A stretch of DNA of 64,000 bases from a virus. This document shows, piece by piece, positions 11,460 through 41,008 of this stretch (positions are counted from its first letter, which is position 1; each line of letters opens with the position of its first letter). Location: the IMG/VR virus record IMGVR_UViG_3300037486_000582, positions 32,001 through 96,000 of that record; one strand, 5' to 3'. Below the pieces are notes generated by a model. That model was not told the origin of the DNA. It was given only the letters and a program-made list of their open reading frames with translations, and searched no databases. The position numbers were made by a program, and so were the translations under genes.

Positions 11460-14400
11460 CTACGGAGCCTCAGGTCCAAGGGCTTCGCGCAACGCGGTTC
11501 CACCCATGCTGTAGCCGGTGAACGCGCCAGCCTTCACCGCAGCCCACACGTCGTCGTTCTTGACACGGGTGGCCAGGAACCACGTTCCCACGGGAAATGA
11601 CTCGCCGCCGTGCTCCTCGACGCGCTTGGAAAGGTAGCTCTCGATGGGGATGACGCCTTCCACGGGCTTCCCCTTGTGCATCACCTTCACCTTCCCGCCA
11701 AAGTGCTCCAGGAACGAATGAGCAGCCTTCTCGACCTCCTTCGCGCTGTAGACGTCGCCCTGCGCGTCGACCTCGTCTGGCACCAGAACGACGCCAAAGA
11801 CGTACCGCTCCTCTGTCTCGGGCGACTCGGCCTTCAGCAGCCGCACCGCGCGCTCGAGCTTGTGGAGCTTCGCGACGGGCTCGCCGCCGCGCACGAGCTC
11901 GCCGGGCCGGAGCAACCCGCGCACGTCCTCAGTCGACGACGGGGCGGCCCCGGGAATAATCTCGAGTGCCTCGGCCGGGCCGAACCACCTGACACGCCGC
12001 GGCGGCCCATCTTCCCAGAGGAGCTCCAGCAACTGGACCAAGATCGTGTCGCCGACGTTCGCGTCGAGCTTCTTGTTCCCGGTGCGCCCCACGGTGACGT
12101 AGGTCTTTCCGTCGTGCTCGACCGGCTCCGCCCACCCTGCGGCGTCACCCGCTGGGATCGGCCCCACGGCCCCGACGAAGTCGTAGACCCCGGGCGAGCC
12201 CTTCACCTCATGCCGGCCGACGACCAGCGCACGCAGCTCGCGTGTCAGCTTCACCTTCGCCCAGAGGTCGTTCTCTCCGCCAAGACTGTACGTGCTCCCG
12301 AACTGCTTGAGCAGCGCGCCTTCGCTCCCCGGCTGAGCCTTCGCCCATTCCATGCTGCGCACGAGCTGGCTTCTGGTCTTGGCCATGCGTCGCGGCGCGA
12401 GGATGAACCGCTCCCCGAGCTTCTGGCCTGCCCACCACCGCTCGAGCAGCCGCCGCCGCTGAGCCAACGGGACGGCCGTGAGGTTCCCTTGTGGACTGAG
12501 GTACAGCGCGTCGAAGACGACGAAGCGCAGGGCGCTGTCGTCGGCTGGCCCGGTCCCGCGAAAGCGCGCCAGCTCCCGCCGTGGCAGGAAGTTACCCTTG
12601 GCGTCCACGCCCATGATCTCGCCGTCGAGGATGAAGTTGCCTCCGACCTTCCGCAAGTCTGCCGTGAGCCCAGGAAGAACGGAGGAGAGGTCGCGCTTCC
12701 TGTCCTCCGTGAAGACAAGCACACCGCCGTCCTCCACGCCGGGAGCCACACCGGCGTCCCAGGACTCAGCAACGGCGCGGAAGCCGTTGTACTTGGGCTC
12801 GACCTGGACTCCGTCACGGACGAGCTGGTCCGTGAAGACGGTCCGCGCCGCGAGGTCGGCGTCGGTGAACGTGGACGTCTCGCGTTTCGCCGGCTTCATC
12901 GGCTGGAACAGGGCTGGCGGACGGAGCAACGTGCGGTCGCCGCCCTTGTCGTCGGTATCGTCGATGTCGGCCGGGTCCCACACCTGTGTTCCATCTGACT
13001 GGACGCGGAATCGCTTCTCGGCCGGCTCCACCGGAGTGCTGCTCACGGTGCCGTTCGCGAGCGCGTGGACGTGCGTGTTGCCGCGCAACGCCGGGCCGCC
13101 GGTGCGCCCAGCGTCGGCGAGGCCGTGGACGTGCGCCTGGCCGCCGCGTTCGGTTGTCGTAACCCCGCCGCCGGGCAGCCGGTGGCTGTGACCTTGTGCC
13201 TCCGTCTGCTTCGGAATGGCGCGCCGCGGGTCGGACCCCGGGCTGAACTGGAACAGGTCTGAGTCGACCTCCTCAGCGACGAGCGTGAACAATCCCTTGA
13301 GCCGCTGACCGCCGAGCCGGAACTTCAGGAACGCGCGCTGGGCGTCGAGGAGGTCGGCGCGACCGCTGTCGATCCGCTGGATGCCGGACGCCGTGTTCTT
13401 CGTATCGTTCAGCGCCAGCCCGGCGACGCGCGTCCCTGGAGCCACGTCGCCTTCGAAGTTGAGCAGCGCGTTGCCGGCCTCCTGTCTGACGCCGGCAATG
13501 ACCTCCTCACCCGAGAGCGGATCGCGCTGGAGCTGGAAGTCCCACACCCCGGAGCCGTCCGGTTTCCCCAGGACCAGGTGCCACACCTGACGACTCGGCG
13601 CCGCACGGACGACGGTCTGTCCCTTCCACCACTGCCAGAGCAGCGCGAAGGGCACGCGCTCCTGTTTCGCGACGGGCTCCGTCTCTTCTTCCTCCGGGTC
13701 GTACCCCTCTCGGAGAACCTTCCGCTCGCTCCTGCGGTACTGGAACTCCCCATCGAGGACGACGTTCTCCTCCGTGAAGAAGCGGGCGTCCACGAGCGCG
13801 TCTCGGATGCGCCGCGCCTCGGCCTCACTGTCCGCGAGCCAGAACCTGTACTCCCGCGGCGTCGCCTGCATGAGCGTCGTAGGCATCCCGCTCTGCCCAA
13901 GCGGGGGCATCGTCTCGTTGTCGACGGAGTGCCGGCGCAACACGCCGGGGAGCAGCACCTTGTTGAACCCGCCCGTCCAGAAGGTTTCGCCCTCCTGCGC
14001 GACGCCTTCCTCCATTGGCTGGTCCCCGCCTTCCAGCATCCGGAAGGTCAGCGTCCCACTGAACTTCGGGTCACCCGTGAGGAAGTACTCGTGCGAGAAC
14101 GGCTTCTGCAGTCCCCACTCCGCCTGCGGTGTCGCCACCTCGACGTAGACCCCGGGCTCGTTCCGCGTCGCCCCGACCCCGCCCGGCTCCACGACGACGT
14201 CGCCGAGGTCAAGCCAGACAGTCGGCTGCCGGCTCTTGGCCGCCGCGAAGATCCGGTCCGGGAGCATCATCGGCTTGGTGTAGCGGCTGCCGGCCACGTC
14301 GAAGGCGTCGGCAATGACGCGCGCCTCGGCAACCGTGTTGACCTCGGGGACGGCCCCAGCCTTCTGGAGCGCCATGGTCCAGCCGACCAGGAAGTCCTTC

Positions 14401-17490: not shown

Positions 17491-18735
17491 TTACAGGACA
17501 GGGACCGTCGTGCACCGGCAGCTCGCGTGAGCGGGAGGCACCATCGCCCCGCCACCGCTCCCCGCCCCGCCACCGACCGGCCTGTAGACGCCGACTCGGT
17601 CGACGACCCCGAACCCGCGCTGCTGAATCTGTGCGACGGGCGGACCGAGCGGACCGCCGCGCGGAGAGACATGAATTTGGTCCCCGACGACCCTGTACCA
17701 CGCCGACATGTTGACCGCGGCTTCAGGGTCGGGGCTCCGCAGGGCGGCTTCGGTGCGCGTCAGCGACGACTCGACGGGGAACTGCTGGCCGTGTAGCCAA
17801 CGGCACGTCTCACACGTCCGCTCGTCGAGGACAGCCTCCCACGTGTAGGAGTCGATCTCGGCCACGCCGTAACCAACCATCTGTCCGTAGGACCGGGCCT
17901 GGGCGACGGCCGCACTCGCGACGGCGCGGTAGTAGTTCTCGTCCCGTCCAAGAGCAGCACCGCGCATAGCCACGGCGAGGTCTTGTGCGATTTGCCTGTA
18001 GCCGAGCCCCTCGGCGGCACCCTCGCCAACGATGCGCCGAGCAGCCCGGGAGAACCGCTCACTTCGGCGAGCGAACTCGTCGGAGATGAAGACGGACCCG
18101 TTCCGTCCGATTCTCCGGGCGAGCTCCCGTTCGACCGGACTGAACGTGAAGGCCAACCCGCGAGCAGCCGTCGCCCCCAACGCTGACCTCTGGGCGACGG
18201 ACGCCGCAACCTGCTGAAGCTGGCCGAGCGCACCTTCTCGGAAGTCCCGGCTCCCCGGGATGTCCCGTACTGCAGTCGCCAGCATGGCGATGGCGTTGTC
18301 GACCTGAGCCGCGGTCATGGTTGGCCACGGTCGGCGGAGCTGGTCCAGCGCACGACGAAGGGTCCTCCGTGCTGACGCACGGCTGGTGGCCCGGAGAGCG
18401 CGTTCCAAGCGTTCGATGGCCAACGCAAACGCACGACGAGACAGCGGGAGGTCCGCCTTCTCGACGGTCACCGTGTCCTGCTGGAACGGCCAGAGCCAGA
18501 GGCCACTCTGCGTCTGGATGGCGCCACGGTAGACGAGGACATCGCGCTCGGTCGCCTCGGCCAACGCCTTCGCAGCCGGCCCGACCTCCCGGGCATCGGC
18601 GATGCGATGCAGCAGGCCGATCTCTGGAATCGCAATTGCGACCGCACCGCAGGCCGTCAGGGCAGGCGGGTCCGCGAACAGGACGCCCCGTGGGTCGCCC
18701 ACCTCGGTCCAGGGCGGTCCGAGCAACGCGGTCAT
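17491..18735 (-). CDS. Minor head protein MuF (SPP1 gp7-like)
   Basis: WEAVLDERTCETCRWLHG and PPAHASCRCT motifs; after portal. Confidence 0.85.
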   Translation of the reverse strand: MTALLGPPWTEVGDPRGVLFADPPALTACGAVAIAIPEIGLLHRIADAREVGPAAKALAEATERDVLVYRGAIQTQSGLWLWPFQQDTVTVEKADLPLSRRAFALAIERLERALRATSRASARRTLRRALDQLRRPWPTMTAAQVDNAIAMLATAVRDIPGSRDFREGALGQLQQVAASVAQRSALGATAARGLAFTFSPVERELARRIGRNGSVFISDEFARRSERFSRAARRIVGEGAAEGLGYRQIAQDLAVAMRGAALGRDENYYRAVASAAVAQARSYGQMVGYGVAEIDSYTWEAVLDERTCETCRWLHGQQFPVESSLTRTEAALRSPDPEAAVNMSAWYRVVGDQIHVSPRGGPLGPPVAQIQQRGFGVVDRVGVYRPVGGGAGSGGGAMVPPAHASCRCTTVPVL

Positions 18736-31834: not shown

Positions 31835-32536
31835 TCAGCGCGTCCGCTGGACACGGCGCGTGCCGCGGGCGGGTGCCGGTGCGACGGACCGCCGAGCGAT
31901 GTCCCCGGCCTCCGCGGACGCGGTACTGACGTCGGCGCCACGCCTCCGTGCCGCGGACAGTCCGGCCCGAACCGCAGCCAGAACGACCCGAGCAACACCA
32001 GGCTCCAGGCGCGCCAGGAGCCCGACGAGCCCCGTGACGGCCCGTTCAACCTCACGGGCGAACGCGTCCTGCTCCTTCGCTCGGCAGTTCTCGGCAAATG
32101 CGGCACGCGTCGCGTCGTTCCACGGAACGACCGGGATGCGCGGGTCGGAAGCCATCCGCTGCAAGTTCCTGGACCACGCGCGTTCCATCGCCGCCGCCGG
32201 CCCCGGCCGAGCAGCAGACTCCACGCGGACCATGACAGCCCACGTCGGGAGCGCTCGCGGGACGCCCCGAACGACCGCGGTCAGCGCCTTCCCCGCGGCA
32301 AAGGCGGCGACGAGCGCGTCTACGAGCTCCCCAGCGGTGCCTGGAACGGAGACGAACCGCCGCGTCGTGGCGCCGCGCGCCTCCACGTAGGAGCCACCCG
32401 CGGCGCGGACGCGCCGACCCCATCCGTTTGCTGTGAATTTCGGGTCCGGCGGAAGATGTAACTCCCAGACTGGCGGAGGAGCCGACAGAATGATGACCGC
32501 CCCGTCATCGTGGAAGGCGTAGTCGACCCGGCTCAC
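31835..32536 (-). CDS. Hypothetical protein
   Basis: GTGA overlap with upstream gene. Confidence 0.5.
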   Translation of the reverse strand: MSRVDYAFHDDGAVIILSAPPPVWELHLPPDPKFTANGWGRRVRAAGGSYVEARGATTRRFVSVPGTAGELVDALVAAFAAGKALTAVVRGVPRALPTWAVMVRVESAARPGPAAAMERAWSRNLQRMASDPRIPVVPWNDATRAAFAENCRAKEQDAFAREVERAVTGLVGLLARLEPGVARVVLAAVRAGLSAARRRGADVSTASAEAGDIARRSVAPAPARGTRRVQRTR

Positions 32537-35986: not shown

Positions 35987-37084
35987 CTAGTCTACGCCAC
36001 CGCCGGGCGGGTCGCGCCAGTAGGCGGGCGGGTGGCAGAGTCGCGGCCAGGCTGCTCCGACCGGCCCGCCGGCCGTTGCGCGCACCGCGACTTCTGCGTC
36101 GTCCGGGTAAGGCTTCGGCATCTTCGGAAGGAGGAAGGCGCGCGTGCCGGCGTCCTTGTCGCACCAACCACACGGCGCGAACCGACGATCCTTCGACGCG
36201 AGCAGGCGCCGAGCAGCCATGAACCGCCAGCCCCACCAGATATCCGTCAGCGTTTCGTCCCGATCAGCCACGCCGCAGACGTAATCGCCGCGCCAGTCGA
36301 TGCAGCAGAGCCGCACCTCGCCGTTCCAGGTGACGGCGAGCTCGCGGAAGGGGTTCGAGCAGTTCTTCCGGAGCGGAGCTTCTGGAACGGGGCGAGCCGG
36401 GCTCGCCCCGGCGTGGTTGAGCACCTTGCGGCTGGCCCGCTCCCGGTCGCGAAGTCCCAGGTCGTCCATGAGCACGACGAGCCGGCGGGCGAAGCGCCTG
36501 TGGTTCCCCCACGGCGACCACCCGCTGGGGGCGAGGTCAGCGTAGAAGTCGCGTACGGTGATGCCGACGCCAAGCGTTGCTGCTTCGGCGCGGAGGTCGT
36601 CCCTGTCCTCACGGTAGGTGTCGATGATGACGTAGTCGAGTCCGGCGTCGAACAGCCCGACGATCTTCTCTCGCATCCGGCCCCGGAGAAGCTGGCCGTT
36701 CGTGGTCATCTGGAGCTGCGCCTTCGGGAGCAGCGCCCTGAAGGTCGCCACCACCTCGACCGCCTGTCGGTTGGCAAGTGGTTCACCGTGCATCGCGAAC
36801 TCGTACCGCGCCCACGGGGCAAGGGCGGCTGCCTGTTCAGCCACGAGCAGCGCCGTGTCGAGCGTCATCGGCTTGAAGCCGCCAGGCTTCGTGCGGATTG
36901 CGTTCAGTCCGCAGAAGGAACAGAGCCGGGTACACCCTTCGGTCAGCTCGATCTGGACGGACCAGGGACGCTGGACCAGAGCAGCCGCCGGGTCAGCAGC
37001 GATGGCGTCTGCAGGCGCGTGTGGCGGCGGCGGCTGCCGCCACTTGTCGCGAACGTACCTCCGCTTCACCCGGGGCTCGGTCAT
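35987..37084 (-). CDS. Radical SAM protein with SPASM/twitch domain
   Basis: [19 protein letters not shown]; [21 protein letters not shown]. Confidence 0.85.
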
Positions 37085-37518
37085 TGGTCTTCCAATTCCA
37101 GCGGGTCGGTCGGCCGGTCGGCATCCGCCTCCATCTCGCCGGCCACCGAACAGAACGCTTCGACGTGGTCAGCGCGATCGAGCATCTGTCCTGCCAGGGA
37201 CCGAATCTGCTTGGCGCACTCACGGAGTGCTGTGCGGAGCCAGGCATTTGCCTCGTGTTCGGCGAGCCAGGCCTCGTAGGAGACGTCCAAGCACCCACAC
37301 GAGAGGAGCTGGCCTCCACACCGCGGGCACCGCTCCATGTCGCAGCCAGGATGGTGCCGACCGCCGGGGCGCACCCCGCAGTCATGACAGCAGTGACGCC
37401 CGGCCGGGCGGTAGGGCACCGTCGGAAGGGACTCCCCGTCCGGGAACACGACGGACACGTTCTTGACGCAGGTGTCCACCTTGCCCATCTCTCCAGAGCA
37501 CGCCAAGCAGGCTCCCAT
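37081..37518 (-). CDS. Cys/His-rich metal-binding hypothetical protein
   Basis: [28 protein letters not shown]. Confidence 0.65.
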
Positions 37519-37551
37519 GTTTCGTTACTCCCGCCCCGGTCATTGAGCCGG

Positions 37552-38037
37552 TCAGCGGCCGGCACGAGCGAGACGCGCACGCTCCCGGGCAAGGCGCTCG
37601 CCGTGGAATCGGGTGCGAGCAGCGACGTGGGCCTGCGCGTCGGCCACGGCGGTCGGGCCACTGAACGCGCGTGGCGCGGGTATGGTAGACAGCCCGCCTG
37701 GGCGAGAGTACGTCCCGTCCTGGTTACGGAATGCTGGCACTCCTTCCGTGACCGTGACCTCGTCGGTGTTCGACCGCCGCGTCTGGACCATCGCCATGTA
37801 GGGTGAGCGCACGCGCTCGTTCCCCACGAACACGGCACCGCCGTTATTGTAGAAGTCCTCGGCGCGCGTCCCGGTCGGTGGCGCTGCCGAAACCCGCTCG
37901 ATCACGTCCTCGGCGATCATGCGTCCGGTCAGCGGAGTCACCTCTGTCGGGAGCCCGCCGGCCGCTTCGCCACCGCCACCGGCCGCTGCTCCGCCGGCTG
38001 CCCCGCCACCGCCGCCACCGCCTCCACGTCCGCCCAT
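37552..38037 (-). CDS. MGGRG-leader protein 5
   Basis: MGGRGGGGGGGGAAGGAAAGGGG leader; SD GGAGG; unique body. Confidence 0.75.
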   Translation of the reverse strand: MGGRGGGGGGGGAAGGAAAGGGGEAAGGLPTEVTPLTGRMIAEDVIERVSAAPPTGTRAEDFYNNGGAVFVGNERVRSPYMAMVQTRRSNTDEVTVTEGVPAFRNQDGTYSRPGGLSTIPAPRAFSGPTAVADAQAHVAARTRFHGERLARERARLARAGR

Positions 38038-38040
38038 GAC

Positions 38041-38544
38041 CTACCTCCGTCCACCTGGCCGTGTGCCAGTAGTCGGCAACGATGGCCGACGCTGCCGCCG
38101 CTCCTCGGAGAGCCGCCGAGCGGACTCAGCCGCAGACCGCGTTGCCTCCCGTTGAGCAGCCTCCAGGGTCGCGTGCTGGCTCCGCTGTGTCGTCGCTGCC
38201 GTCCGGTTCGGCGCCCCAAATTCCCTGGCGCCTTGTCCCCAGCGCGAGGACGTCGCGACATCGAAGACGGGCTCGCCGCGGATGTTCTGCCCGCGGTCGA
38301 TTGTCACCTGGCGGACGACGATGTCGTTGGTCTGCCCGACGCTGATGACGTTGCCTGCGGCTGCGACGTCGTTGCGGTTCAAGTTGTCCGGGTACCGCCC
38401 GGCCGGGAGCCCGCCCGAGACGACCGTTTCCGTTGCCGCCGTTGCCGCCGTCTCCGTCGCGGCACCGCCGCCGGCTGCCCCGCCACCACCCGCGGCACCA
38501 CCACCGCCGCCGCCTCCACCACCACCACCACCACGTCCTCCCAT
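38041..38544 (-). CDS. MGGRG-leader protein 4
   Basis: Same leader; SD AGGAGG; unique body. Confidence 0.75.
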   Translation of the reverse strand: MGGRGGGGGGGGGGGGAAGGGGAAGGGAATETAATAATETVVSGGLPAGRYPDNLNRNDVAAAGNVISVGQTNDIVVRQVTIDRGQNIRGEPVFDVATSSRWGQGAREFGAPNRTAATTQRSQHATLEAAQREATRSAAESARRLSEERRQRRPSLPTTGTRPGGRR

Positions 38545-38553
38545 CTTGACCTC

Positions 38554-39063
38554 CTACCGCGCGACTGTTCTGCTCGTGTCGGGCAGGTAGACCCGCGCCA
38601 GTTGCGTTTCACCTCGACGCTGTCGATTTGGCCGCGGACGGGTGACCGGATCGACTGTCGCTCCGGACATGCCCTGTCGGGTCAGCATCTCTCCGATGGC
38701 CTGTTGCTCTCGGTCGGTGAGCGGACGCGTCCTGCTCCCTCGGCCGACCGAATTGAGCTCGATCCGCCCGGTGTTCACGTCGCGGTTCACCTGGAGCCCT
38801 TGGTCGCGCAGCCCGGGGACGACGCTGATGGCGTCGACCAGAGCCCGCTCGGCTCGGCGCTGGCGCTGTTGCGGCGTCTCCGCATTCGCAGCCGCGACAT
38901 TCCGCTGCACGTCCGCGAGCCGTGGAGCCCCGCCGGGGATGAGCCCGGAGGCCTCGACCACCGTCGCCGTCTCGGCCGCGGCTGCTCCGCCGCCACCGCC
39001 GGCCGCGGCACCGCCAGCTCCACCACCGCCGCGACCGCCGCCTCCTCCGCCTCGACCGCCCAT
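38554..39063 (-). CDS. MGGRG-leader protein 3
   Basis: Same leader; SD AGGAGG; unique body. Confidence 0.75.
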   Translation of the reverse strand: MGGRGGGGGGRGGGGAGGAAAGGGGGAAAAETATVVEASGLIPGGAPRLADVQRNVAAANAETPQQRQRRAERALVDAISVVPGLRDQGLQVNRDVNTGRIELNSVGRGSRTRPLTDREQQAIGEMLTRQGMSGATVDPVTRPRPNRQRRGETQLARVYLPDTSRTVAR

Positions 39064-39084
39064 GACTTACCTCCTGCTCGCCCG

Positions 39085-39486
39085 CTACGGGGTCCGCTCA
39101 CCGGGGCGCAACCCGGCCTGCCTGATCCGCTCCTCGCTCGGTCTGACGCCGGACGGGAGCTGGCGCAGCTCGTTCACCGTGAGCCCCGACGGGAGCGTCC
39201 CTCGGCGGTTCATCGCGTCGGTCGCGTTCATCCCGACGCCCTGCCACGTAGCCGAACGCCAGTCGCCCCAGACACCCCGCGTGCTGATGCCCTCACCGAG
39301 CGCGCGCAGCTCCGGGTCCGAGAGCGTCTGCAGCCGGGCTGGCGAGAAGTCCCCAGCCGGGTCCGTTGACGCCGCTGCCTCGGCGAGCACCGCGGCTGCT
39401 CCGCCGCCGCCACCGCCGCCTCCTGCAGCAGCCCCACCGCCGCCTCCGCCTCCCCGGCCACCGCCGCCACCGCCGCGTCCGCCCAT
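39085..39486 (-). CDS. MGGRG-leader protein 2
   Basis: Same leader; SD AGGAGG; unique body. Confidence 0.75.
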   Translation of the reverse strand: MGGRGGGGGGRGGGGGGGAAAGGGGGGGGAAAVLAEAAASTDPAGDFSPARLQTLSDPELRALGEGISTRGVWGDWRSATWQGVGMNATDAMNRRGTLPSGLTVNELRQLPSGVRPSEERIRQAGLRPGERTP

Positions 39487-39495
39487 CGTCGCCTC

Positions 39496-39846
39496 CTAGT
39501 AGCTCCGCAGCGCGTCGCGGAGCTGCGGGTCCAAGTCACGGTTGTTGTGCCGAACTCCGTACATGAAGTTCCGGGCGTGGGCGGCCAACTCGGGCGGCGG
39601 GTTCGCGTCGAGGTACGTCCTGGTCGCACGGATCAGGTCGCGCCTGGCTTCGCCGTGGTCGCCCTTGTACCACCCGTTGAACGGCGTCATCCGGTCCATC
39701 CGGTCCATCGCGGTGATGGACTGCTGCAAGGATCGCCCGGCCGACGCGACGGCGGGCGGTACTGCAGCGGCTCCACCGCCGCCACCCGCGGCAGCCCCGC
39801 CACCGCCACCGCCACCGCCACCGCCTCCGCCACCACGTCCGCCCAT
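39496..39846 (-). CDS. MGGRG-leader protein 1
   Basis: Same leader; SD AGGAGG; starts 3 nt after DUF4417 stop. Confidence 0.75.
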   Translation of the reverse strand: MGGRGGGGGGGGGGGGGAAAGGGGGAAAVPPAVASAGRSLQQSITAMDRMDRMTPFNGWYKGDHGEARRDLIRATRTYLDANPPPELAAHARNFMYGVRHNNRDLDPQLRDALRSY

Positions 39847-39848
39847 GT

Positions 39849-40622
39849 TCAGCCTCCTGTCCCCGTTATTGCGTCGACCGGCTCCGCGTCTGCCTCGTCA
39901 TCGAACAGGCCGTCCAAGAGGCTCAACTGCCGCGTGTCCACGGGACCACGTTCCAGCCGCGAACGCATCTCGAGTATACCCTTGGGCGAGAAGCGAGCGA
40001 ATGACGAAAGGTCTGCCACGCCGAGGTCATCCCAGAGCTCCCCGTACACGAGGACCATGGATGGCTGAATCGTGTCGACCATCGCCCGGTACCCCTCGCA
40101 GAACCGACGTCGCACATCCTCCCCGACCCTGATACCTACCGTCGAAACGCAGACCGTCGAACGTCGCGCGATCCCGGCAAAGCAGAAGTCGAACGTACGC
40201 CAGTCGCCCCAGTTGACCGTGGGCACCACGACCGCCCCGCGAGCAGCCCAATAGGCGCCGAGCCACCGCGAGCGGTAGGTGTTCCAGAGCTGAAGCGCGG
40301 GCGGCCACTCGACGTACATGCTGAAGTCCGGCGTCAGCACGCCCTGCGCGCCAAGGACGTAGCGGTCGTACCTCCCGGGATTGTTCCAGACCGACTCGAA
40401 TCGGTAGTCGTCGAAGAAGAAGTGCCAACAGCCGCCAGCCACTTCGTCGTCGTCGAGCTTGTTCCGGTTCACCCACGGAAGCAGCACGTCCGGCACCCAA
40501 TCGACCGGGCCGGCGACATCTGGGAGGCCGAACCTGTTCGCGCTCCGATACAAGGACGTCGCGTGGAGCGGGTCCCAGTTGCCGGGGAGGCACTTCCAGT
40601 CCTTGACGTTCGGAATGCCCAT
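39849..40622 (-). CDS. DUF4417 family protein (start 40622 or 40649)
   Basis: HFFFDDYRFESVWNNP, VLTPDFSMY, QLWNTYRSRWLGAYW, VVPTVNW, FCFAGI, VSTVG. Confidence 0.85.
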   Translation of the reverse strand: MGIPNVKDWKCLPGNWDPLHATSLYRSANRFGLPDVAGPVDWVPDVLLPWVNRNKLDDDEVAGGCWHFFFDDYRFESVWNNPGRYDRYVLGAQGVLTPDFSMYVEWPPALQLWNTYRSRWLGAYWAARGAVVVPTVNWGDWRTFDFCFAGIARRSTVCVSTVGIRVGEDVRRRFCEGYRAMVDTIQPSMVLVYGELWDDLGVADLSSFARFSPKGILEMRSRLERGPVDTRQLSLLDGLFDDEADAEPVDAITGTGG

Positions 40623-41008
40623 GGCCTTCGTTTCTACCACGCCGGTCATTGAGCGTCTGCTCAATGACGTGGCCGTGACGTTGCTACCGCTGCTGGACGA
40701 CAAGCTCCCGGTGCTCCGCCGGCCGCATGAGCGCCTGGCCTCGGCGGACTTCATCGCCCTGTTCAGCGATGAAGATGCCGCTGCCATCCGGCTCGGAGAA
40801 CGTGGGCGCATTCGCGTTCACGGCGTCGGGCACACATCCTGTCGGATCACGGTGATGCTGCGCGGACAGCGCCGTATCGCGCTCCGCGCCGAGGTCGTGC
40901 GCGTTGCGCTCGTTGTCGGACTGGTCGAGATCGCCACGTCCTTCGGTTGGGACGTGGCGTACTCCGGTGGAATCGAGTCGGTGACGCGGATAAACGGGCT
41001 CGGGATGA

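Follow-up and report, generated by a model that had tools for sequence, protein, structure and literature searches.

Lysine depletion beyond base composition in five tandem GGRG-tagged proteins of a high-GC phage

Why should five neighboring phage proteins, all rich in Arg and with bodies that do not resemble one another, contain a single Lys between them? The question is raised by positions 37552-39846 of the window, by which the whole analyzed stretch of 64,000 nucleotides is meant (positions 32,001 to 96,000 of the IMG/VR record IMGVR_UViG_3300037486_000582). Five tandem genes, g1-g5, lie there on the minus strand, and each product starts with MGGRGGGG. A first-pass annotation had counted one Lys and no Cys in their 746 aa, placed the Lys in g1 (WYKG), and called the five proteins Arg-rich; recounting returned the same values, with 91 Arg, 26 Asn, 155 Gly, and 109 Ala.

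The genes are tightly packed from stop to ribosome-binding site to start, a ribosome-binding site of the GGAGG type precedes each of them, and in every case head and body share one reading frame. The first, g1 (39496-39846, minus strand), encodes a protein of 116 aa, with MGGRG, a Gly/Ala head of 28 aa, and a body made of helices, and carries the only Lys of the array. The other four, on the same strand, possess neither Lys nor Cys: g2 (39085-39486; 133 aa, 32-aa head, 14 Arg), g3 (38554-39063; 169 aa, 30-aa head, 24 Arg), g4 (38041-38544; 167 aa, 29-aa head, 21 Arg, and the least hydrophobic body, with a fraction of 0.17), and g5 (37552-38037; 161 aa, 23-aa head, 19 Arg), each beginning with MGGRG. 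The g3 sequence is also present, identical, in Logan and JGI assemblies, and a variant of g5, P0005, has three extra Gly in its head.

The tagged genes are preceded by a DUF4417 gene (PF14386; 39849-40622, minus strand; Pfam E 9.6e-49; phrog_940, "nuclease"), whose true start is likely the ATG at 40622 (MGIPNV...), while the mechanical ORF extends to 40811; this ORF of 320 aa has six Lys. The unit formed by DUF4417 and g1-g5 is bounded by copies of GCKCAATRAC, a motif that recurs upstream of genes in this phage and of which the window has 12 exact copies against 0.24 expected. One copy (40645-40654, minus strand) lies just before the DUF4417 start, at the upstream edge, and the next (37539-37548, minus strand) follows the g5 stop and precedes a Cys-rich gene at 37081-37518, at the downstream edge; a further copy with one mismatch was read from the sequence before g1, at about 39864. 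The adjoining radical SAM/SPASM gene was considered as a partner of the array and rejected, as its homologues occur in unrelated low-GC phages that have no such arrays.

The depletion of Lys exceeds what base composition accounts for. The genome has 108,577 bp and is 69% GC. Its other ORFs that look genuine, 99 in all, contain 2.63% Lys, 2.36% Asn, and 8.34% Arg, with a K/(K+R) of 0.24, and the position-specific nucleotide frequencies of g1-g5 themselves predict 11.3 Lys against the one observed. The array uses 26 AAY codons (Asn) and one AAR codon (Lys), compared with a genome ratio of about 1:1 (Fisher p 8e-8). The Gly/Ala heads, 23-32 aa each and 142 aa in total, exclude Lys by construction, so that the informative length is 604 aa; 145 of these 604 body codons are one mutation away from a Lys codon. 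A recent one-step replacement of Lys by Arg was ruled out because g1-g5 show no excess of AGR codons for Arg. The first-pass annotation had argued instead from proteins of the same phage that use Lys freely, and the counts agree with it, as there are 22 Lys in the 393 aa of RecA, 15 in the 316 aa of the gp32-like SSB, 12 in 365 aa and 22 in 503 aa of the radical SAM proteins, and 68 in the 2070-aa ligase/protease protein; however, these are a biased baseline because they are conserved enzymes.

The statement that the five bodies are unrelated holds at the sequence level. Pairwise comparison gave no significant match, the best being g3 with g4 (25.6% over 125 aa, with an E of 0.003 for a database of the five sequences, searched without composition correction). 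Searching g1 and g5 against 5.8 billion proteins returned only the queries themselves, the g4 body had no match among 1.84 billion representatives, the g3 body gave no usable look-alike in the ESM Atlas, and the array, as well as g5 as a protein, had no match among GenBank phages. Pfam and PHROGs assigned no family to any of the five, hence no MuF (PF04233) fusion, toxin domain, or nucleic-acid-binding domain was detected by them. An AlphaFold single-sequence model of g1 (mean pLDDT 66, pTM 0.57) predicts a disordered head followed by four helices, and a fold search with this model against the PDB returned only generic four-helix bundles, with E > 0.4.

The array belongs to a wider set of genes, which is defined here and not in the literature as a class of products that start with MGGRG, or a close variant, and are encoded directly downstream of DUF4417 on the same strand; our literature search found no paper on the DUF4417 and GGRG module. 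In IMG/VR, 78 of 80 DUF4417 loci are followed by one to four MGGRG-start genes, the pairing recurs in 35 of the 59 metagenome DUF4417 loci of sufficient length, and it is also present in the phages Faith1, Enceladus, Odin, and JSwag. The five proteins share with this class the MGGRG start, the upstream DUF4417 gene, the unrelated bodies, and the near-absence of Cys, which amounts to 10 residues in 17,551 aa for the IMG/VR members and 25 in 17,272 aa for those from metagenomes. Some class bodies carry toxin domains, namely PF03496 (ADP-ribosyltransferase) and PF15644 (glutamine deamidase), and six of ten sampled members have no family, so that a recognizable toxin domain is not a strict requirement of the class. 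From comparison of the tags, a free GGRG N-terminus looks like the conserved feature, which would be exposed by removal of the Met or, in low-GC phages, by a Prp-type site (NLQFF/GGRG). The array examined here is the longest of the class seen, with five genes, and it has the longest poly-Gly heads and no recognizable toxin domain. None of the five bodies matched any of 95 class members significantly.

Avoidance of Cys is common to the whole class, whereas avoidance of Lys is not. Lys makes up 4-10% of class members from Mycobacterium, Gordonia, and low-GC phages, those of the Mycobacterium smegmatis and Gordonia phages having even more Lys than their respective genomes, and in some members Lys is found inside the tag itself (GGGKGGGKGG; MGGRGSKGG). 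These Lys-rich proteins adjoin DUF4417 genes that are 36-44% identical to the one described here, whose identity to gp115 of the mycobacteriophage Faith1 is 44%. A regression over the class predicts a K/(K+R) of about 0.45 at the GC content of this phage, against 0.011 observed (P about 1e-6), although this prediction is extrapolated beyond the sampled GC range.

Apart from one close relative, the array is the only Lys-free one seen in the class. This relative, L119 (Ga0316626_10001198), is the nearest and the only one found; its DUF4417 protein is 74% identical and starts with MGIPNVQDWKC. Its array begins with a g4-like gene followed by a second MGGRG gene, with one complete gene visible, and the g4 homologue has no Lys and 18 Arg in 156 aa in spite of its divergence (49% over 35 aa, E 1e-7). 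Another candidate relative, L016, an IMG/VR contig of 109 kb in which MGGRG matches internally, was rejected, as it has no portal match. The first-pass proposal that a shared constraint, and not ancestry, underlies the pattern is supported over base composition and visible ancestry, and the Lys-free homologue of L119 agrees with it; the N-terminal-amine cause attached to it is not supported, as discussed below.

The array is not alone in its composition within this phage. The MuF-like head protein, a separate gene (17491-18735, minus strand; PF04233, E 1.6e-9) that is not fused to g1-g5, has two Lys and 47 Arg in 414 aa, with a Lys-free stretch of 321 aa; its K/(K+R) is 0.04 and that of the tape measure is 0.06, compared with 0.24 genome-wide. 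The capsid, the portal, the protein in the scaffold position, and the 2070-aa protease polyprotein have ordinary Lys contents, and since the last is a protease-bearing head protein, not all head-associated proteins are depleted. Genes with little Lys make up 11 of 49 in the structural modules and 6 of 50 elsewhere, a slight difference only. For other phages, in which a PF10145 search for tape measures gave no match, the longest structural ORF was taken as the tape measure. On this basis, Odin and JSwag have more Lys in the tape measure, and also in the tagged protein, than in their genomes as a whole, so that the two move together there; in the complete IMG/VR phage that carries L048, the tagged proteins are Lys-poor beside a probable tape measure rich in Lys.

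The explanation that we prefer, tentatively and at slightly less than an even chance, is that Lys was selected against, in this lineage specifically, in proteins that the phage probably delivers to its host; we infer both the causal selection and the delivery. The five would be fast-evolving, Cys-free, GGRG-tagged tandem proteins, most likely effectors or cargo handled via their free GGRG N-terminus, and they are probably loaded into the particle, or delivered otherwise, for action inside the host. Absence of Lys is no requirement of the tag/DUF4417 system, which appears to tolerate the residue; the purge would therefore be a matter of selection in this lineage, where all basic positions of the array, one Lys excepted, are occupied by Arg, and the same pressure may have lowered the Lys content of the tape measure and of the MuF-like protein as well. 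The selection reading is supported by the retention of one Lys only in bodies that have diverged beyond recognition and in which so many codons are a single step from Lys. As for delivery, the toxin-type bodies of some class members and the Lys poverty that the array has in common with the tape measure and the MuF-like protein are indirect hints that may point in this direction.

A non-adaptive origin is unlikely. The five genes could be old tandem paralogues, or recombinants sharing a head, derived from an Arg-rich and Lys-free ancestor, and at 69-72% GC Arg would win over Lys at every basic position in polar proteins that are partly disordered and under weak constraint, so that the pattern would be a by-product without function. 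The bodies are indeed polar, with hydrophobic fractions of 0.17-0.26 against a genome mean of 0.295, and already at 61-62% GC, small class members in tandem contain little Lys (K/(K+R) 0.11-0.28). The expectation of the first-pass annotation that Lys-free ORFs of similar size would be few elsewhere in the genome was borne out only in part, as several of similar size without assigned function have none; among the 49 ORFs of 80-220 aa, five have no Lys and 14 have at most one. Lys counts per gene are overdispersed in the genome, so that each array gene alone is unremarkable (P 0.05-0.27). The joint probability is 2.5e-6 if the genes are independent, 1.7e-5 for the bodies only, and 0.003-0.006 if the array is counted as one unit, as ancient paralogues would be. 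Furthermore, Lys-free proteins and stretches, known as lysine deserts, were reported to be frequent in high-GC Actinobacteria and Mycobacterium phages, proteome-wide and without control for GC (PMC10665810; caveat in PMC13696103). Against this origin stand the approximately 11 Lys predicted from the nucleotide use of the genes themselves, the Asn content of 3.5%, encoded by AAY and above the genome average, a GC3 of 0.77, lower than the 0.87 of the genome, and the 145 codons one step from Lys in bodies diverged to saturation. Other family-less ORFs of the genome reach 5% Lys, and among all runs of five consecutive genes the array is the lowest, with 0.13% Lys, the next non-overlapping run having 1.05%.

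If selection against Lys is the right reading, its most likely cause would be a Lys-directed hazard for proteins that enter the host or act in it early, such as a Lys-specific protease or a Lys-conjugating tagging system. The full proposal, that the purge is the signature of host-bound proteins (the tape measure, the MuF-like protein, and the five tagged proteins) and answers a host defense that attacks the Lys side chains of incoming proteins by either of these means, we consider rather unlikely. Avoidance of pupylation, a form of the host Lys conjugation that the first-pass annotation had put forward, is weakened as a property of the tagged class by the Mycobacterium smegmatis and Gordonia phages, whose tagged proteins exceed their genomes in Lys. 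The clues to the host of the present phage, sought in the portal, terminase, capsid, RecA, WhiB, and tRNA genes, single out no host: its DUF4417 is nearest to the actinophage versions, the portal and capsid are nearest (34-38%) to those of Rhizobium, Rhodobacter, Stenotrophomonas, and Bacillus phages, with many further matches to Streptomyces phages, and neither WhiB nor tRNA genes were found in this phage.

Selection in favor of Arg, in place of selection against Lys, is improbable. According to this explanation, the bodies and their Arg-rich C-terminal tails, seen in g3, g4, g5, and the L119 protein, would bind nucleic acid or another polyanion, or would drive condensation, and they would need the guanidinium group, for which Lys is no substitute. 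The array is 12% Arg, the net charge of the body is +3 to +7 in four of the five proteins, and the heads of g2 and g3 contain RGG-like segments. However, functionally equivalent class members use Lys, as illustrated by the KRRKKR tail of Faith1 gp116 and by the cluster A forms with K-rich heads; the Lys-poor tape measure is left unexplained, and Pfam and PHROGs revealed no nucleic-acid-binding domain.

Two further causes named by the first-pass annotation are very unlikely. The first, that a Lys would compete with the amine of the N-terminal Gly, fits the apparent conservation of a free GGRG N-terminus, but it is contradicted by the MGGRG proteins with 4-10% Lys, some with Lys inside the tag, that are encoded beside related DUF4417 genes. 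The second is a Lys-directed prohead protease, from which cargo without sites would be safe. This phage is the only one of 15 tag-bearing phages examined that has an S78_2 (PF14550) protease, absent from all 14 other records, and its MuF-like head protein is also Lys-poor; yet the equally Lys-poor tape measure lies outside the head and is not explained, while the capsid, the portal, the scaffold-position protein, and the polyprotein that bears the protease itself have ordinary Lys contents. No paper was found on the cleavage preference of XkdF-type proteases.

PrrC-type anticodon nucleases and the PARIS effector AriB are reported to cut tRNA-Lys, and it has to be considered that genes free of AAA and AAG would stay translatable during such a host defense, with the array encoding counter-defense proteins. 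This is highly improbable, even if the phage has no tRNA gene of its own, the cluster L mycobacteriophages, in which tagged proteins are rich in Lys, have the DUF4417/tag pair within a tRNA array with two tRNA-Lys genes, and a head protein of the phage carries a nucleic-acid end-repair toolkit (the ligase domain), as this domain is of the DNA-ligase type (PF01068), DUF4417, co-transcribed by position, has six Lys codons, the logic is weak for the tape measure and the MuF-like protein, which are late structural proteins, and avoidance of the residue and of its codons look alike in sequence.

Three known systems offer a comparison. MuF-fused polymorphic toxins and the internal proteins of T4, the latter with an N-terminal capsid-targeting sequence, combine a conserved N-terminal address with swappable effector bodies. 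The tagged class resembles them in having such an address and swappable C-terminal bodies, and it includes ADP-ribosyltransferases of the VIP2/exoenzyme type, whose genes lie close to packaging genes in many phages; ADP-ribosyltransferases packaged in the head have been described (PMC9503650). Unlike these systems, g1-g5 have neither a MuF domain nor a T4-type cleavage motif, their packaging is putative, and the address, which travels with a DUF4417 gene, would be the short GGRG tag joined, in this phage, to a poly-Gly/Ala tract of 23-32 aa.

Szulc et al. (2023, PMC10665810) define a lysine desert as a Lys-free stretch that is 150 aa or longer, or that covers 50% or more of a protein no shorter than 150 aa; g3, g4, and g5 (169, 167, and 161 aa) fall within this definition, and g1 and g2 are under the 150-aa cutoff. 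The proposed reason for lysine deserts is the avoidance of a Lys-directed tagging system (PMC10665810; PMC13696103). The likeness is that a high-GC phage has proteins entirely free of Lys, or Lys-free stretches that reach 150 aa or more, whereas the purge described here concerns one functional class and was tested against composition, and the published pattern is proteome-wide. The Pup rationale presupposes a host that possesses a Pup-proteasome system, and the phages of Mycobacterium and Gordonia have Lys-rich members of this class. The catalytic A chains of AB toxins that translocate from the ER are also Lys-poor, with Lys replaced by Arg beyond the effect of GC, which would let them survive Lys-dependent degradation (ubiquitylation) in eukaryotic target cells (PMC13696103). 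The array shares with them Arg in place of Lys beyond the GC expectation, together with a delivery that is presumed here, and it differs in that its target would be bacterial and in that none of the five bodies has a detectable toxin domain.

The published reading of lysine deserts as an escape from Lys-directed tagging has evidence behind it that is proteome-wide and confounded by GC. The locus provides a sharper natural experiment, in which a single swappable class, defined by its tag and its partner, is Lys-rich in some phages and nearly Lys-free in one lineage, with the tape measure of that lineage moving likewise. It also constrains the chemistry of the module, as whatever DUF4417 does with the GGRG tag tolerates an adjoining Lys. 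If the contrast between phages follows the host, it would point to a Lys-directed hazard for phage proteins with a simple sequence readout, and if the host-defense reading is true, whether a host has such a defense would be readable, phage by phage, from the K/(K+R) of the tape measures and of the tagged proteins.

The virus is a tailed phage with a genome record of 108,577 bp (GC 68.6%), of which the window covers positions 32001-96000. Its genes include those for the large terminase, portal, MuF-like protein, HK97-type capsid protein and baseplate J; another encodes a 2070-aa protein that combines a DNA-ligase domain with an S78_2 (XkdF-type) protease at the C terminus. Five tightly packed genes, g1 to g5 (116, 133, 169, 167 and 161 aa), occupy positions 37552-39846 on the minus strand. 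Each is preceded by a GGAGG-type ribosome-binding site, and each product starts with MGGRG followed by 23-32 Gly/Ala residues (the "head"; the remainder is the "body"). The directly adjoining upstream neighbor is a DUF4417 gene (Pfam E 9.6e-49), and a motif recurrent in the phage, GCKCAATRAC, is found before DUF4417 (40645-40654) and after g5 (37539-37548). Judged by position, DUF4417 and g1-g5 form one block. In the JGI gene calls for this DNA the starts are placed at internal codons, leaving the heads out; we take the heads as translated because the ribosome-binding site and ATG are present in five of five genes, every head is in the reading frame of its body, and many other phages encode proteins with this N-terminus.

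Codon use in the poly-Gly heads (37552-39846) is shifted toward GGT (25% vs 9% in the genome) and away from GGG (17% vs 31%), which breaks up G runs. A g5 variant from another assembly (P0005) has exactly three extra Gly codons in its head, so head length slips in frame. Directly after the array, positions 37081-37518 encode a 145-aa protein with 13 Cys in CxxC-type pairs and no Pfam family; its gene overlaps by 4 bases that of a radical SAM/SPASM enzyme (35987-37084), which has homologues with 40-52% identity in low-GC phages that are unrelated to this one.

The first-pass annotation described the five proteins as almost lysine-free, and the exact count agrees: their 746 aa contain 1 Lys, 0 Cys, 91 Arg and 26 Asn, the sole Lys being located in g1, within WYKG, with none in g2-g5. 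The resulting K/(K+R) is 0.011, compared with 0.24 for the 99 other real-looking ORFs of the genome, in which Lys averages 2.63%. Base composition is argued against as the cause because 11.3 Lys would be expected from the position-specific nucleotide frequencies of the five genes themselves, because Asn, whose codons have their first two bases in common with those of Lys, outnumbers it 26 to 1 and exceeds the genome average (Fisher p 8e-8), and because GC3 is lower in the array (0.77) than in the genome (0.87). The bodies are mutually diverged beyond recognition, and 145 of their 604 codons are one mutation away from a Lys codon. AGR Arg codons are not in excess, which rules out a recent one-step K-to-R sweep as the source.

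The number of Lys per gene shows strong overdispersion across the genome, with 0 Lys in 5 of 49 and at most 1 Lys in 14 of 49 ORFs of 80-220 aa; each single gene of the array is therefore unremarkable (P 0.05-0.27). The heads cannot contain Lys, which limits the depletion statistic, and the joint P for g1-g5 is 2.5e-6, or 1.7e-5 for the bodies only, if the genes are independent, rising to 0.003-0.006 if the five evolved as a single unit. Similar-sized ORFs can thus be equally Lys-free, yet the array is the lowest-Lys five-gene run of the genome (0.13% vs 1.05% in the next non-overlapping run). A shared constraint rather than ancestry, as first proposed, is a reasonable reading that the composition controls favor and the one-unit P value weakens. 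The depletion itself is real and unusual, both within the genome and within the protein class.

The class was reached by searching IMG/VR with the head pattern, which led to cluster L mycobacteriophages. In Faith1 the DUF4417 protein is gp115 (E 1.7e-60), which shares 44% identity with that of the window, and the product of the next gene, gp116, starts with MGGRGGGGGG. The same pairing is found in Enceladus, Odin (cluster A) and the Gordonia phage JSwag. In JSwag the tagged gene carries the annotation VIP2-like ADP-ribosyltransferase toxin. The Faith1 pair (L034, NC_015584.1, 6272-7324) lies inside a tRNA array, and in cluster L a tRNA-Lys(ctt) is just upstream of the pair and a tRNA-Lys(ttt) downstream; a second tagged gene, gp134 (160 aa; 11912-12394), is found singly at a distance of 5 kb, where its neighbors lie on the other strand. 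A query built from an alignment of DUF4417 proteins returned 80 IMG/VR loci (GC 31-65%), 78 of which have at least one downstream gene starting with MGGRG or a close variant, and 34 have two to four tagged genes in tandem with different bodies. Among metagenome contigs, the pairing occurs in 35 of the 59 loci with enough downstream DNA. Domains recognized among the sampled bodies include those of an ADP-ribosyltransferase exoenzyme (PF03496) and of a papain-fold glutamine deamidase toxin (PF15644). A literature search found no paper on the DUF4417/GGRG module. At many metagenome loci (L148-L151, L165, L166 and L172; GC 54-65%) DUF4417 is followed by a single MGGRG-start protein of 907-958 aa without a Pfam family. 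Roughly 40-70 residues from their start these proteins share a GGA(V/T)YPFL..TGRAW-type motif, and they represent a large uncharacterized branch of the class.

In a low-GC subgroup (L083, L092, L097, L099, L104, L105, L107-L112, L114-L116 and L118), the first gene after DUF4417 encodes 3-8 residues, then NLQFF followed by GGRG(A/S)SSG. In Firmicutes, NLQFF serves as the Prp/L27-type cleavage motif. By analogy, a cut after NLQFF would expose GGRG, as Met removal does elsewhere; the residue after the putative cut is Gly in this subgroup, not Ala. The host protease Prp cuts after this motif in L27 and in phage 80alpha head proteins (PMC5744158). Since Prp-type cleavage would give the same N-terminus as Met removal, a free GGRG end is suggested as the conserved feature of the class.

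The class is also almost Cys-free, with 10 Cys in 17,551 aa (IMG/VR, L039-L118) and 25 in 17,272 aa (metagenome, L119-L198), far below ordinary frequencies from 31% to 72% GC. Lys, however, is abundant in Odin gp1 (24 in 292 aa), JSwag gp2 (19 in 295), Enceladus gp109 (12 in 114), Faith1 gp116 (8 in 118) and Faith1 gp134 (13 in 160), and reaches 10-18% in low-GC members. Lys avoidance is consequently not part of the DUF4417/GGRG system: Cys avoidance is the class property, and Lys avoidance is peculiar to the lineage of this phage. Even small tandem members at 61-62% GC are Lys-poor, not Lys-free (K/(K+R) 0.11-0.28), and when K/(K+R) of 66 loci is regressed on GC in a beta-binomial model, extrapolation past the sampled GC range predicts about 0.45 at the GC of the array, against the 0.011 observed (P ~1e-6). 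The idea that the proteins must offer no amine competing with the N-terminal Gly is contradicted by these Lys-rich members, some of which carry Lys inside the tag itself. M. smegmatis and Gordonia possess Pup systems, and the tagged proteins of their phages are Lys-rich, so pupylation avoidance, one form of the proposed escape from Lys conjugation, is not a general class property.

Protein database searches detected no homologues of g1-g5 outside their own lineage. Among relatives, the best is metagenome contig L119 (GC 0.70), whose DUF4417 is 74% identical. Its first gene after DUF4417 encodes a 156-aa MGGRG protein with a 36-aa Gly/Ala head; the body contains 0 Lys, 18 Arg and 0 Cys and is a strongly diverged g4 homologue (49% over 35 aa, E 1e-7), which means that array order differs. 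A second MGGRG gene starts at the contig end. Divergence this fast beside a 74% identical DUF4417, with Lys still at 0, fits a maintained constraint, if weakly, this being one gene with about 1.8 Lys expected. The g1 body is modeled as a plain four-helix bundle. A predicted complex between DUF4417 and residues 1-60 of g1 scored 0.38 (best of three controls, 0.00; contact agreement between runs at least 40%, partner pLDDT at least 46). Of 80 solved complexes 58 reach the mark, as do 2 of 110 mismatched pairs, and only 7 of the 80, along with both passing mismatches, lie at 0.60 or under; the pairing is weakly supported and is taken as a hint and no more.

The other most depleted large units of the genome are the MuF-like protein (17491-18735; 2 Lys and 47 Arg in 414 aa, K/(K+R) 0.04) and the tape measure (L032:2702-5359, genome 22702-25359, outside the window; 4 Lys and 65 Arg in 885 aa, K/(K+R) 0.06), which has a 403-aa Lys-free stretch; the corresponding value for the array is 0.01. 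Lys accounts for 1.87% in the tail module, 2.82% in the head module and 3.10% elsewhere, and low-Lys genes are only slightly commoner in the structural part of the genome. Two more Lys-poor ORFs without a family lie at the far genome end, also outside the window, L031:2149-3180 (343 aa, 1 Lys, 41 Arg, 14 Cys) and L031:3753-4289 (178 aa, 0 Lys, 21 Arg; both in genome coordinates). K/(K+R) of tape measure, tagged protein and genome is 0.73, 0.67 and 0.43 in Odin and 0.54, 0.59 and 0.41 in JSwag, whereas a complete 61% GC IMG/VR phage (record of L048) has a probable tape measure rich in Lys and Lys-poor tagged proteins; co-variation is suggestive, very few phages having been compared.

As to the host, the DUF4417 is nearest to actinophage versions, while portal and capsid are 34-38% identical to Rhizobium, Rhodobacter, Stenotrophomonas and Bacillus phage proteins, with many Streptomyces phage matches; neither a WhiB nor a tRNA gene was found in the phage genome.

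One rival reading is that the Lys absence may have a neutral, compositional and ancestral origin; it is favored by the many Lys-poor ORFs of the genome and by lysine deserts being known to occur in excess in organisms of high GC (PMC10665810, with caveats in PMC13696103). Further possible readings are a specific need for arginine and an avoidance of Lys codons that would keep the genes translatable if a host defense cuts tRNA-Lys. The head protease, proposed at first, cannot account for the tape measure, and Lys is ordinary in the protease-bearing 2070-aa protein. PF14550 (S78_2) occurs in 0 of 14 other tag-bearing phage records, which leaves the proposed sorting by protease type with no second group.

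The Lys purge belongs to the known "lysine desert" theme and is not a new kind of system. In the most economical reading, g1-g5 would be tagged effector or cargo proteins of a DUF4417 system, and lineage-specific selection against Lys would have acted together on them, the tape measure and the MuF-like protein, the latter two of which enter the host or come into contact with it during infection.
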